Of a stretch of DNA of 57,327 bases, positions 44,253 through 49,429 are shown piece after piece. Under the pieces are notes generated by a model. It did no database searches. It saw only the letters and a list, made by a program, of their open reading frames with translations, and was not told where the DNA came from. This DNA comes from a virus (Duplodnaviria > Heunggongvirae > Uroviricota > Caudoviricetes), in IMG/VR virus record IMGVR_UViG_3300034357_000765; one strand, written 5' to 3'. Made by a program: the position numbers and the translations under genes. Numbering within the stretch: the stretch's first letter is position 1; the number at the start of each line of letters is the position of its first letter.

Positions 44253-44699
44253 ATGAGGCATCTGAAGAGGTTTAACGAAAGCATAGAAGAAGGTTTAGAT
44301 ATCGAGTATATCAAATTCTGTTTTATCGACATGGTCGAAGAGAAGAAAGATGGCGAAGAACTTGGTGAGATATCATATTGGAATAAAGTATCAGATATTG
44401 GTGCAAAGAAACAGATAGAAGACAGAGACGCCACTTCCAAAAATGTTACCAACGTAATCATATTTGTTATCTGTCCTCAGCTGAATATCGAGCATACACC
44501 AGACGGATTCAAAGGAAGCATATCAGAATTTACAGAATACAACAAAGCATTTGCAGCTTTTTTAGATGAACTTGAAGCAAATATGGAAAAGCTCAAAGAA
44601 GAACATCCAGACTATGTAGTAGAAACCACTTTTAACCAGCCTTTAATAGATGGAATAAAAGGTCTCGACTACTTTGTAATCGAAGTGAAAAAGTCTTAA
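44253..44699 (+). CDS. hypothetical protein, MRHLKRFNES N-terminus, 148 aa
   Basis: Last gene of the operon. Confidence 0.72.
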   Translation: MRHLKRFNESIEEGLDIEYIKFCFIDMVEEKKDGEELGEISYWNKVSDIGAKKQIEDRDATSKNVTNVIIFVICPQLNIEHTPDGFKGSISEFTEYNKAFAAFLDELEANMEKLKEEHPDYVVETTFNQPLIDGIKGLDYFVIEVKKS

Positions 44700-45409
44700 A
44701 TCTTATTCTTCAAGCACTCCCAAAGAATCATATAGATATTGTCTATCTGGTCATACCTTATCTTAACCAAATCAATATAGTTGTCTTCACAATAGTCAGA
44801 CTTTATCTTTTCATCAATCTTTGATTTCTCATAGGTATTCAAGCCACCCAGCTCTTCTATCGACTGAAAATGATAGATACCATCAAACTCTACACAAACT
44901 CTTATAGAAGGAAGATAAAAGTCAAACTCAATCTTATCCAACATATGGTTCTGCTTGAAGTCTATCTTGAACTTTCTAAGAAAGTCCTTTATCTCCCTCT
45001 CGCCTTTGAAGTCGCTTTGATCCAGCAAGTCTCTTATTATGGATTCTTCGTTCTTTCTAAACTCAGGTGCCATACCCTCTAAATGTGAAGAAGGGCGTTG
45101 CTCATACTTTATACCTCTATATAATATCGTTATCGGAGTAAGCATGTTTTTATACTGTACCAAAGAGTAGTCATATTTGTCGCCCCAAACATTTATTGCT
45201 CTTTCAACAAAATCTTCTGTAGACTGACGTGTAGACGACTTCTCTGGACATCGACCCATTAAATGCTTGACAACACTTTGTTGATATTCAACACCATTAT
45301 ATTCTATATCAATCTTATCGGACAATATAACTTTCTCGTTTAAAGTAGGATATGTGTATTTATATCCGTGCCTTTCTCTTGCTTTCTCTAAAAATTCCAT
45401 CTTCTTCAT
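44696..45409 (-). mobile_element. free-standing homing-endonuclease-like gene (DUF723-type repeats + Vsr/DUF559-like nuclease)
   Basis: Two F.EKA...HG.KY.Y-type repeats; FDFYLP....VEFDG..HF...K..YC......L..I.Y nuclease domain. Confidence 0.65.
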
Positions 45410-45513
45410 ATAGTATATATAAAAAATCACACCCTCTTTCGGAACTATTTTAAAAAAACTTGAAAGGGAGGTATAGTTTCTTTATATATAAAGTATAAAA
45501 ATAATTTAAGAAG

Positions 45514-46746
45514 ATGGCAAAAGCAGTAAAAGAAGGAAAGAAATTCGAATTCAGCAAAGTTGGTTCTATATTAGACAACATAGCTAAATCTATTCCAATC
45601 TTAATAGAAAAGGAAATTAAAGAAAAAACATTCATCACAACAGGAGTTTATTTATTAGACGCCGCACTATCAGGAAGATTGCTAGGTGGTGGAGTTGCAT
45701 CAAACAGAATCACGGCATTCGCTGGAGAATCCGGTGCAGGTAAATCGTTCATCGCTTATTCAGTATCAAAGCACGCACAGAGAGCCGGATATTCGGTAAT
45801 CTATATCGATACAGAACAAGCGATTGACTTAGAAGACTTACCAAAGTTTGGAATCGACAACTCTTTGGAAAAGTTCAGATTAATCAGATCTAACAAAGTA
45901 GAAGATGTAAACATGTTATTGACTCAGTTGATAGATGATTTGAAAGAACAAAAGCTTGCAGGATTTGAACTGCCTAAACTAATGATTGTATTAGACTCTT
46001 TAGGTCAAATGGCAAGTAACAAAGAAAAGGCAGATTTATTGAAAGGTGATATCAAACAGGATATGACTAAAGCAAAAGCATTAGGTTCTATGTTCCGTTC
46101 AATCAACACAGACTTAGGATACTTAGATATTCCAATGATTGTATGTAACCACACTTATCTAACAATGGACCTTTTTCCACAAGAGAAATTAAAAGGTGGT
46201 AATGGTTTGTTATACTCTGCATCAGTAATCGGCTTTATGTCTAAATCAAAATTGAAAACAGGTGAAGAAGATGATATGGACTTAGGTCAATCAGGAATCT
46301 CTGTATTGTTCAAGACTGCAAAAAACAGAATGGCCAAACCTAAGAAGATTAGATTTGACATCTCTTTCGCGAATGGTATGAATCCATACACAGGATTGGA
46401 TGCCTTCTGCAGACCAGAGTATATGGATCAGATTGGAATCGCTAAGGGTAAAATGGATGTAAACAAAGCCACTGGTGAAATGACTTTTGTACCTGGAGGA
46501 AACAGATGGTATGTATCACACCTAAACAAATCAGTTACTACAAAACAACTATTCTCACAAGAGGTTTTCACAACAGGCGTCTTAGATAGAATGGCACCGA
46601 TTGTAAACGACTACTTTAGATTCAAGTCATTAGACGAGATCGAAGAGGTAGAAAACGAATTCAACAAGATAGTTGGAGAAGATGATGAAGAAGATGACAC
46701 AAATGGCTTCACAGATGCTACGGACGCAGGAGACCTTTTTGGATAG
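45514..46746 (+). CDS. recA: RecA/UvsX recombinase, 410 aa
   Basis: TTGVYLLD..LSG, AGESGAGKS, IDTEQA, IVLDSLG, NHTY, KGGNG..YSAS. Confidence 0.88.
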   Translation: MAKAVKEGKKFEFSKVGSILDNIAKSIPILIEKEIKEKTFITTGVYLLDAALSGRLLGGGVASNRITAFAGESGAGKSFIAYSVSKHAQRAGYSVIYIDTEQAIDLEDLPKFGIDNSLEKFRLIRSNKVEDVNMLLTQLIDDLKEQKLAGFELPKLMIVLDSLGQMASNKEKADLLKGDIKQDMTKAKALGSMFRSINTDLGYLDIPMIVCNHTYLTMDLFPQEKLKGGNGLLYSASVIGFMSKSKLKTGEEDDMDLGQSGISVLFKTAKNRMAKPKKIRFDISFANGMNPYTGLDAFCRPEYMDQIGIAKGKMDVNKATGEMTFVPGGNRWYVSHLNKSVTTKQLFSQEVFTTGVLDRMAPIVNDYFRFKSLDEIEEVENEFNKIVGEDDEEDDTNGFTDATDAGDLFG

Positions 46747-46801: not shown

Positions 46802-46972
46802 ATGCAAGAAATCTATGAGAACTTGAAAACATTATGGGAGCAATTTGATGCTAATCATAATAAAACGACTAAAAAATCTAACGCTGACGCAAGAAAAGCA
46901 TTAGGAGAGATTAAAAAGTTGGTTACTACTTACAGAGCTGCTTCAGTTGAGTCTGAAAAAGTTGCTAAGTAA
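46802..46972 (+). CDS. Hc1/Bacteroidota histone-H1-like small protein, 56 aa (missing from the ORF track)
   Basis: MQEIYENLKTLWEQFDANHNKTTKKSNADARKALGEIKKLVTTYRAASVESEKVAK; ARKA..EI.K....YR.AS.E pattern. Confidence 0.62.
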   Translation: MQEIYENLKTLWEQFDANHNKTTKKSNADARKALGEIKKLVTTYRAASVESEKVAK

Positions 46973-47000
46973 TAAACTTATTATATAGCTAACTATATAA

Positions 47001-47105
47001 GAGTATGTTTTCCTTGTAGTCATAAAACAAGGTGGTGGAGCCGAAAACAAAGATCTTAATAAAGATTTGGCCCAAACCCTCTCCTTTTAAAGAGAGGGTT
47101 TTTTG
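47001..47105 (+). ncRNA. candidate structured small RNA with its own terminator
   Basis: GC-rich island: CCTTGT/ACAAGG hairpin, TGGT linker, GGAGCC/GGCCC stem, then AAACCCTCTC/GAGAGGGTTT plus T-tract; no plausible ORF. Confidence 0.45.
47074..47104 (+). terminator. intrinsic terminator
   Basis: 10-bp stem followed by a T run. Confidence 0.85.
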
Positions 47106-47124
47106 TTTATTGAAAAATAATATA

Positions 47125-47132
47125 TATCTTTG
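47125..47132 (+). promoter_or_regulatory. Bacteroidota-type promoter -7 box TATCTTTG
   Basis: TTTG 19 nt upstream (47102-47105). Confidence 0.7.
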
Positions 47133-47148
47133 TAAAAGAAATAAAGTA

Positions 47149-47211
47149 ATGAGAGAATTTAATAACAAAATGATTTTGCATGAACAAAACAGTCAACGAC
47201 TGAGTTTATGA
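47149..47211 (+). CDS. putative attenuator leader peptide MREFNNKMILHEQNSQRLSL, 20 aa
   Basis: First ATG after the promoter; stop lies 20 nt before a terminator; 3' end can pair with the terminator 5' arm. Confidence 0.5.
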   Translation: MREFNNKMILHEQNSQRLSL

Positions 47212-47231
47212 TATTGTATTCAACGATATTT

Positions 47232-47262
47232 AAACCCAGTCTTTATTAAGGCTGGGTTTTTT
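47232..47262 (+). terminator. conditional terminator of a putative attenuator
   Basis: AAACCCAGTCT/AGGCTGGGTTT plus T run, 20 nt before the next ATG. Confidence 0.8.
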
Positions 47263-47281
47263 GATTTTAAAAAATAAAGAT

Positions 47282-47449
47282 ATGGAAATGACTATTTACA
47301 AGTATATGAAAGATGGCAAGTTGTACATGTTTCATACCGTCGAAAAAGAGAACGGGAAAAAAGAAATATTGGCGATACCAGTTAGACATGACGGAAAGCC
47401 AATAGTGAACTGTGACATAAAGGATTTTGTGCTGCACTCAATGGATTAA
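47282..47449 (+). CDS. hypothetical protein, 55 aa
   Basis: ATG 47282 preferred to the TTG in the ORF track. Confidence 0.6.
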   Translation: MEMTIYKYMKDGKLYMFHTVEKENGKKEILAIPVRHDGKPIVNCDIKDFVLHSMD

Positions 47450-47636: not shown

Positions 47637-48158
47637 ATGAAAGTAATATTTTTGGATAACGATGGAGTAATGTGCTTATCTACAGAGTGGGGCGGTCGCG
47701 ACAAAAAGATTAAGAAATGGAAGCTTTCTAATCCTGGAGATCCTGGATACGTAAACGATCCAAAGATACCGGCACATATAAAAATGGACAACTTTAACTC
47801 AAAGGCAGTTAAAGTCTTAAACGACATATTGACAATAACTGATGCTGAGATTGTAGTATCTTCTGATTGGAAGTTGCATTGTACACTAGAGCAGTTACAG
47901 GATATGTTTATCAAGTACGGAGTTTTAAAAGCACCGATTGGGAGTACACCTAATCACGTTTTAAAGTCTATGGACGAACTTGAAAGCACGAGAGTAGCCG
48001 AAATATCGGAATGGCTTTCGAGTCATCCAGACGTAGAGAAATGGGTAGCCATTGACGATTTGGATCTTAGTGCTTTACAATGTTTCGTTCACACTAAGAG
48101 AATGAAAGAAGGAATCAAACAATCTGGCATAAAAGAGCAGATTTTAAAGTTCTTATGA
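47637..48158 (+). CDS. HAD domain of the Swiss-Army-knife RNA-repair type, 173 aa
   Basis: KVIFLDNDGV, IVVSSDWK, WVAIDD. Confidence 0.8.
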   Translation: MKVIFLDNDGVMCLSTEWGGRDKKIKKWKLSNPGDPGYVNDPKIPAHIKMDNFNSKAVKVLNDILTITDAEIVVSSDWKLHCTLEQLQDMFIKYGVLKAPIGSTPNHVLKSMDELESTRVAEISEWLSSHPDVEKWVAIDDLDLSALQCFVHTKRMKEGIKQSGIKEQILKFL

Positions 48159-48724: not shown

Positions 48725-49429
48725 ATGACTAAAAAAGACTTTATAATAAAATCGTTATTTTTAAACGGAACATTATCAACAAGTGAAATAGTAGATAAAT
48801 TCTACGATGAATGTACTGAAAAGGTTGATGAAAAGAGAGTTTATTATATATCAAAAGGTAGTGAAAAAACAGAAAAAGAATTAAGACAACAAATCTACGC
48901 AGAGATGGGTAGAGGAATTATATCAATACCAACACTTGTTGAAACCTCAAAAGAAAAAGGTTCGTTAAATAAACATAATATAACGGAACTTGGTAAGAAA
49001 TTCTACTTAGAGAGTAACAAAGAAGAAGAAGAAAATATTGACGTTGTTATAGAAAATATTGATATAGAAGAAAATGTCGATACTTTTGGTATTGTATATC
49101 TTTTAAAAAGTAAATCTTTCAACGATACTTATAAAGTCGGAAAAACTAAAAACATCACTCAGCGACTATCAGAACTATCAAAAGATCATAGATATGGTGT
49201 TTTTAATTTAGAAGAGATTATGAGAATAGAATGTGAAGACTATTCTATAATCGAAAGAGTATTACATAAGTTTTTTGAAGATTTTAGACTATGTAAGAAA
49301 AATGAGATAAAGGTAGATACAGAACTATTCATAAATATACCTACAATCGAATTAGAGTTTGAACTATTTGCAGAAATGCTAAGTAAGAATCCACGATATG
49401 GTAAATGTAAATTGATAAAAAATAAATAA
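48725..49429 (+). CDS. GIY-YIG-like (T5orf172/MUG113) domain protein, 234 aa
   Basis: GIVYLLK...YKVGKTK....RL.EL...IERVLH..F...R....ELF. Confidence 0.75.
   Translation: MTKKDFIIKSLFLNGTLSTSEIVDKFYDECTEKVDEKRVYYISKGSEKTEKELRQQIYAEMGRGIISIPTLVETSKEKGSLNKHNITELGKKFYLESNKEEEENIDVVIENIDIEENVDTFGIVYLLKSKSFNDTYKVGKTKNITQRLSELSKDHRYGVFNLEEIMRIECEDYSIIERVLHKFFEDFRLCKKNEIKVDTELFINIPTIELEFELFAEMLSKNPRYGKCKLIKNK

Follow-up and report, generated by a model that had tools for sequence, protein, structure and literature searches.

A stand-alone wcaG-type RNA module behind the uvsX and hc1 genes of an uncultured phage, and its possible relation to tRNA 3' ends

We find that the window, i.e. the whole stretch of 57,327 nucleotides analysed here, contains a structured RNA of ~100 nt on the plus strand (47007-47105), formed by the flank GUUUU, a hairpin (P1), the junction UGGUGGA, a second hairpin (P2) and an intrinsic terminator. 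We are highly confident that this element is a plus-strand module of the wcaG type. Judged by sequence and predicted fold, it is a stand-alone copy of the unit that is repeated in the wcaG RNA, and it matches a module that lies unannotated 5' of the match to the Rfam family RF01761. Taken as a whole, the best explanation is that of a stand-alone wcaG-type RNA that would read tRNA or tmRNA ends in trans, to which we assign a probability of roughly 35%.

The source record is an uncultured phage with ~33% G+C. The UvsX-like recombinase of the window shares 83-84% identity with those of its two closest relatives among the >600-kb "huge phage" records of GenBank and ~33% with those of the Prevotella Lak phages, and a DNA similarity search of the window against the phage collection gave no match. 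The uvsX-like gene (45514-46746) is located upstream of the element and of a small gene (46802-46972, plus strand) that encodes an Hc1-like, i.e. histone H1-like, protein of 56 amino acids (PFAM PF07432, 28.8 bits). The order uvsX, hc1, element is common to ~25 loci, and the element is probably the 3' end of the transcript of the Hc1-like gene. Further downstream, a second intergenic block (47106-47282) has a strong terminator at its end (47232-47259) and is followed by three small genes and a HAD gene of the RNA-repair type (47637-48158, PF18143). The uvsX region is flanked by an HNH/homing-endonuclease-like gene on one side (44696-45430, minus strand) and by a T5orf172/MUG113 (GIY-YIG-like) gene on the other (48725-49429, plus strand).

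All the sequence features listed in a preliminary description of this DNA, i.e. a palindrome, the P1 hairpin, TGGT, a GGAGCC/GGCCC stem, an AU hairpin and a terminator, are present. By direct reading, P1 (47012-47032) consists of the arms CCTTGT (47012-47017) and ACAAGG (47027-47032), which form CCUUGU and ACAAGG around a loop of 9 nt in the plus-strand RNA; the fold and the covariation give the same hairpin. It is preceded by GUUUU (47007-47011), and GUUU or UUUU is found 5' of P1 in most family members as well as in three out of three cyanophage wcaG modules. Within the junction UGGUGGA (47033-47039) the first four letters form the linker (TGGT in the DNA, 47033-47036), the following GG is paired to the CC closing P2, and the A forms a bulge. 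P2 itself (47037-47073) has an outer helix of GG-A-GCC with GGC-CC, in which GGAGCC (47037-47042) pairs with GGCCC (47069-47073) around the single bulged A, and a variable inner hairpin, which in the window is made of A and U (47050-47068). The RNA ends with the intrinsic terminator (47074-47105), a G+C-rich hairpin of ten pairs (47074-47101) followed by a run of T, i.e. of U in the RNA. The palindrome, TTATATAG-ctaa-CTATATAA (46981-47000), is A/T-rich and lies between the Hc1-like gene and the element. It was described correctly, but it is deleted in the nearest relative, locus L039, and its octamer is not over-represented; this comparison places it outside the conserved RNA.

The 98-nt RNA folds with -30.1 kcal/mol, corresponding to z = -3.7 when compared with shuffled sequences. 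Together with the covariation described below and the ten-pair stem with its T run, this bears out the earlier claim of a structured plus-strand RNA with a strong terminator. That claim included an exposed UGGU(GGAG), which by prediction holds for the first U but not for the GG of GGA. Along UGGUGGA the predicted probabilities of being unpaired are 0.84, 0.44, 0.44, 0.58, 0.30, 0.18 and 0.67, i.e. U1 would be free and G5 and G6 mostly paired, with the closing CC as their partner, and G2, G3 and U4 lie in between. When an unfitted alignment is used, RNAalifold predicts an alternative fold with GGUGGA paired to the 3' strand of P2. U.G wobbles between the GUUUU flank and UGG are possible, with the pairing at -4/+4 kept inconsistently, and GUUU-UGGU wobble pairing was rejected on the same ground.

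The Rfam scan suggested in the preliminary description gave nothing at gathering level in the window. Its best weak match, PyrR with 30 bits versus 54, is owed mainly to the terminator. According to ARAGORN there is no tRNA or tmRNA within the window, nor across the 150-kb record to which it belongs. The motif TGGTGGA occurs 24 times in the window, always on the coding strand, compared with 4.1 expected copies; since 20 of the 24 sites are in-frame Gly-Gly codons (xxT-GGT-GGA), the excess is a matter of codon usage and carries no signal.

The same element is present in ~45 loci, from huge Bacteroidota-type phages, T4-like cyanophages and a few Firmicutes or MAG contigs. A scan with UvsX provided 62 related loci, with the element 3' of uvsX or hc1 in ~30, and a pattern scan of viral contigs provided ~18 further loci, where it stands behind quite different genes. 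Among 185,579 bacterial and archaeal genomes just 4 matches were found, and the element is therefore essentially phage-borne. Five complete huge-phage genomes were tested with the model R1, and exactly one copy was found in four of them and none in one; weak R1 and wcaG matches elsewhere in huge-phage genomes were not module-like and were discarded. The common plan of the family is (G)UUU, P1, UGGUGGA, P2 (closed by GG/CC, with a bulged A), an A-rich spacer and the terminator. All relatives have a hairpin at the position of P2, variable in sequence and length. Many of them also have an extra ORF of ~70 amino acids, ending in ...KFPCLEK, between hc1 and the element (e.g. L006:5443-5655, L041:5474-5692, L003:3886-4104). 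This ORF stops within the 3' arm of P1; it is absent from the window, which keeps the RNA.

In the 47 model matches UGGUGG is invariant and the next A nearly so, and the junction is likewise invariant in the alignments A2, A4, A6 and A7. The motif for which conservation was predicted, TGGTGGAG(CC), is thus only in part a conserved one: UGGUGGA is the most conserved part of the element, but roughly half of the loci have the next G, and the CC that comes after this G is not conserved. As UGGUGGA alone is conserved, the specific 10-nt complementarity to tRNA-Ala or tmRNA put forward earlier is not supported. Neither is the pseudoknot proposed between GTCAT in the P1 loop and GTGGT, as this loop is not conserved and reads AGAA in most relatives. 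Covariation among phage homologues, another of the checks suggested, gave a positive answer. Across the 47 rows of the model-based alignment A6, pairing in P1 amounts to 98%, both sides have changed at six of the eight pairs, and all five covariation measures are higher than in all 500 shuffles and all slid controls. For the GG/CC that closes P2, 42-43 of the 43-44 rows that have a letter on both sides show G-C, and the pairing of the inner hairpin of P2 is preserved in L039 by two compensatory changes. This conservation shows that the structure is more than a chance fold. The strand can be read from the same data. One pair of P1 is G-C in 18 rows of A6, G.U in 15, A-U in 12 and A.C in none, the P2 stems contain plus-strand G.U pairs too, and the plus-strand fold is more stable than its complement in 27 of 41 unique sequences. 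The G.U pairs, together with the gene context, fix the plus strand.

Several other explanations of the conserved letters were tried and rejected. Coding in overlapping short ORFs is not compatible with the indels of 2, 3 and 5 nt that separate the window from L039. A G-quadruplex formed by GGUGGUGG is contradicted by its first GG, which covaries as a part of P1, and a mimic of a Shine-Dalgarno or anti-SD sequence (AAGGUGGUG) by the loss of AAGG through covariation in L049, L050 and L054. A Chi-like DNA site was dismissed on account of the RNA-type covariation, the single copy per genome and the Gly-Gly codons behind the TGGTGGA excess. For a pseudoknot of UGG with a CC in the P2 loop, CC is found in 11 of 41 loops versus ~7 expected, which is not significant, and pairing of the 5' GUUU with the A-run ahead of the terminator, as a closing helix, is kept inconsistently.

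Weinberg et al. (2010, PMC2864571) described the wcaG RNA of T4-like cyanophages as a riboswitch candidate. In the literature we searched it is still an orphan, thought to act on downstream exopolysaccharide or high-light genes (PMC2864571, PMC9964418). An Rfam wcaG match beside the module was first seen in L121 and L079, two loci from the pattern scan, and a match to RF01761 directly adjoins the module in L121, L079, L199, L200, L202, L203 and L205. The wcaG consensus reads GUUU, hairpin, UGGUGCGGA, hairpin, CC, GUUUC, hairpin, GUGGCGaGc, and on comparison of the two sequences it is a pair of units with the design of the window element. In the cultured cyanophages a UGGUGGA module is located immediately 5' of the Rfam match in five out of seven loci, those of S-IOM18, S-RIM8, S-SRM01, S-RS29 and S-SZBM1 (modules at L199:1499-1552, L200:1476-1523, L202:1181-1230, L203:1170-1222 and L205:1175-1227). 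S-SKS1 has a partial copy of this third module and SynMITS9220M01 has none. It reads GUUU, covarying P1, UGGUGGAGUC, loop, GAC-CC. Given its place 5' of the match and the lack of an annotation in Rfam, RF01761 covers two of three tandem units.

A model (R2) trained on 14 modules, five of them from cyanophages, with the window and L039 left out, matches the window at 47006-47050 with 39 bits (E 1e-10), its sole significant match there. The Rfam wcaG model obtains 19.6 bits against the whole record of the window, with a gathering threshold of 42, and a 700-nt scan of the window with wcaG gave no match even at E<=10. The window contains a single UGGUGGA module, directly followed by the terminator, and no second module was found elsewhere in its record. 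As the module stands alone and the wcaG model reaches only 19.6 bits, the element is not a member of RF01761. The architecture of the unit is the same in both, i.e. GUUU, a covarying hairpin, UGGUG, a GGA-bulged hairpin (the GG-A helix) closed by CC, and then a terminator. However, the wcaG RNA has two modules modelled by Rfam, or three with the unannotated one, and the window has one; the linkers of wcaG are UGGUGCGGA and UGGCGAGC, while that of the window is UGGUGGA. The location differs as well: wcaG is found ahead of sugar or high-light genes, whereas the window type is found behind uvsX and hc1 in huge Bacteroidota-type phages, and the element of the window does not lie in the 5' UTR of an exopolysaccharide or high-light gene.

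The genes upstream of the element are diverse between loci, and the element mostly begins at the stop codon of the upstream ORF. Downstream, 12 of the 27 loci with readable sequence have a convergent gene as the next one, whose end is at the same terminator; the genes that follow in the window and the cyanophages run in the same direction as the element. Nearly all loci have a terminator after the element, with unrelated stem sequences that share no strand with the element or P2. Diverse upstream genes, convergent downstream genes and unrelated, non-overlapping terminators argue against a leader/terminator switch and for a 3'-terminal domain or a small RNA, working through the conserved junction. 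Judging from these alignments, the element does not switch its own terminator, which looks constitutive. The cyanophage wcaG loci (L199-L205) have the same genes upstream, gp205-207 behind a tRNA, but different features downstream (tRNA-Pro, hli genes or sugar enzymes), an arrangement that is more easily reconciled with a 3'-terminal RNA than with a 5' leader. In six of these seven loci the motif has a terminator after it, and several of the cyanophage terminator loops read UUGCAUAAA, with the self-complementary UGCA that is common to the tail of module C. No ORF is found within 400 nt upstream of the element in L151 and L138, where it may have a promoter of its own. Bacterial sRNAs derived from 3' UTRs have a similar layout, i.e. 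a structured RNA right after the stop codon that uses the intrinsic terminator of the mRNA. They differ in that the conserved motif of the present element is invariant across host phyla.

tRNA or tmRNA genes are recurrent neighbours of the module in a number of unrelated phages. The order in the cyanophages is tRNA-Arg, gp205-207, the RNA, tRNA-Pro. A tRNA-Leu gene begins right after the terminator in L079, and another lies ~540 nt upstream of the module in L133, while six tRNA genes are located ~830 nt downstream of it in L145. In L197 an array of 18 tRNAs with encoded CCA starts 131 nt downstream of the module. This locus (L197:55-4144) is from the complete genome of Clostridiales bacterium CCNA10, and the module and the array there probably belong to a prophage or a phage-derived island. 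In L151 a phage tmRNA that ends in CCUCCACCA is located 145 nt upstream of the module, with no ORF between the two; it is a full tmRNA (L151:9275-9667, Rfam 99 bits, tag ANATVGHFVTEGATVAA) of an uncultured 226-kb phage. A tRNA or tmRNA gene within 1 kb is found in ~5 of the 14 contexts that we judged independent by our own grouping; as a rough baseline, the positions no more than 1 kb from a tRNA make up ~5% of a tRNA-rich huge-phage genome. Of the complete genomes, the four that carry a module contain 59, 29, 41 and 7 tRNAs, and the one without it contains 1. The genome without a module (G004, the record of L018) is a complete huge-phage genome, and its single tRNA match is weak. No tRNA was found within 4 kb of the uvsX-linked huge-phage loci, nor any match between the extended tails of the sister modules and the neighbouring phage tRNAs. 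As a pattern of gene positions, the recurrent neighbours support a pairing with tRNA ends.

Pairing with the end of a tRNA has well-known precedents. The antiterminator of T-boxes pairs with the NCCA end of the tRNA through a bulge, UGGN, between helices. The L15 loop of RNase P RNA and the P-loop of 23S rRNA read the CCA end through GG(U). Both tRNA-Ala and tmRNA have the universal end UCCACCA. The RNA of the window, located as it is at the 3' end of the uvsX-hc1 unit, would be made as the 3'-terminal domain of the uvsX-hc1 mRNA or as a small RNA sharing its terminator. By analogy with these precedents, the junction would present UGGU(G) between two stackable helices, and it would pair with the single-stranded (C72)-A73-C74-C75-A76 ends of tRNA-like RNAs, whereby the RNA could, during infection, read, hold or sponge up uncharged tRNA or tmRNA ends in trans. 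We regard this mechanism, with its putative partner and effect, as possible but doubtful. The invariance of UGGUGGA extends over phages of three or more host phyla and argues for a universal partner. The sister modules carry UGGUG and UGGCG, i.e. they differ exactly at the N of UGGN (UGGU-G versus UGGC-G), and these are complementary to C72 and A73 or G73 with CCA. If all modules work in this way, each would offer UGGY-G to uncharged tRNAs, as a partner of their (C72)-R73-CCA end, the type with UGGUGGA would additionally fit the UCCACCA end of tRNA-Ala and tmRNA, and the 3' ends of tRNA and tmRNA would be sensed, held or protected by wcaG-type RNAs that the phages employ in trans. That the wcaG-type modules, the single-module form of the window included, are the first virus-encoded T-box-like readers of tRNA acceptor ends is an unlikely extension.

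The likeness to a T-box is that UGGN lies between two helices, with an N that is complementary to a purine discriminator base. Stem I, the specifier, the T-box sequence and an Rfam T-box match are all absent from the window element. The terminator of a T-box shares a strand with the antiterminator, whereas P2 and the terminator of the window are adjacent without overlap, and T-boxes lie in leaders of aminoacyl-tRNA synthetase genes, whereas the window-type element lies at gene 3' ends. RNase P L15 and the 23S P-loop also present a CCA-complementary GG(U) tract in a structured RNA, an analogy only, with no homology in sequence or structure to the window element. Against tRNA-end reading it has to be said that 4-5 base pairs alone bind weakly; T-boxes need Stem I as well, and no second tRNA contact was found in the window element. 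According to the fold predictions the G residues in UGGUGGA are partly or mostly paired, the complementarity beyond UGGUGGA is not conserved, and the proposed pairing does not account for the conserved 5' UUU flank.

The element could instead be a protein-binding part of the 3' UTR, with the junction (UUU, CC/GG, UGGUGGA, CCC) docking a phage or host RNA-binding protein, e.g. a nuclease, a chaperone or RNA polymerase, that sets the stability or processing of the transcript 3' end. Such a role would agree with the constant position at the transcript 3' end, right before the terminator and after diverse genes, with a conservation that is focused on the short junction while the loops are free to vary, and with one copy per genome. 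We nevertheless consider it rather unlikely, as no co-varying protein gene was identified, and the invariance across phages of Bacteroidota, cyanobacteria and Firmicutes needs a protein that is universal or transferred together with the element. It also leaves unexplained why sister modules differ only at UGGU versus UGGC and why tRNA and tmRNA genes are frequent neighbours. A riboswitch-like or antitermination role, in which a small ligand or RNA polymerase bound by the module would modulate how much transcription passes the terminator into the downstream genes, is quite unlikely. The classification of wcaG as a riboswitch candidate (PMC2864571), the terminator after the motif and the co-directional downstream genes of the window and the cyanophages are in line with it. 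However, the next gene is convergent in 12 of 27 loci, the terminator stems share neither a strand nor a conserved complementarity with the element, so that there is no alternative fold, and it is the upstream genes gp205-207 of the cyanophages that are constant and the downstream genes that vary.

As a base-pairing small RNA the element would use UGGUGGA as a seed against mRNAs that contain UCCACCA. The terminator-ended layout, the conserved and partly single-stranded motif and the possible own promoter of the two loci that lack an upstream ORF would suit this role. A seed that is invariant across phages of different phyla speaks against mRNA targets, and the coding strands of the window carry UGGUGGA and not its complement, which makes this role very unlikely. 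Finally, the preliminary description had proposed an alanylatable minihelix decoy on the minus strand. In this reading a tRNA-Ala-like acceptor (GGG...UCC-ACCA, with G3.U70) would lure AlaRS or CCA-targeting enzymes. The minus strand of the invariant letters does read GGG ... UCCACCA. Yet the 15 G.U pairs of P1 on the plus strand would be A.C on the minus strand, with more of the same in P2, and the G3.U70 register puts C4 opposite C69 in the window. ARAGORN finds no tRNA or tmRNA, and where a convergent gene is present its terminator precedes the element on the minus strand and would block transcription from that side. The G.U pairs and the gene context exclude the minihelix for practical purposes, leaving it a negligible chance. 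Of the earlier interpretation as a whole, the motif and a possible link to tRNA or tmRNA are retained, the minus-strand decoy and the pseudoknot are dropped, and the connection to wcaG had been missed.

The reading we prefer, a stand-alone wcaG-type RNA that would act on tRNA or tmRNA ends, bears on a candidate riboswitch that has been an orphan since 2010, with its function unsolved. The locus and its relatives show that wcaG is built from an autonomous unit, and that this unit also exists alone, in one copy per genome, in huge phages far from the cyanophages. The Rfam wcaG model misses the third, UGGUGGA-bearing module of cultured cyanophages. The contexts argue against the reading of wcaG as a leader riboswitch, and, taken with the tRNA and tmRNA genes nearby, they point towards an RNA that acts in trans and has tRNA 3' ends as its candidate partner. 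If this is true, a 16-year-old orphan riboswitch candidate would gain its ligand, and phages would have a new route to monitor or manipulate the translation apparatus of their hosts.
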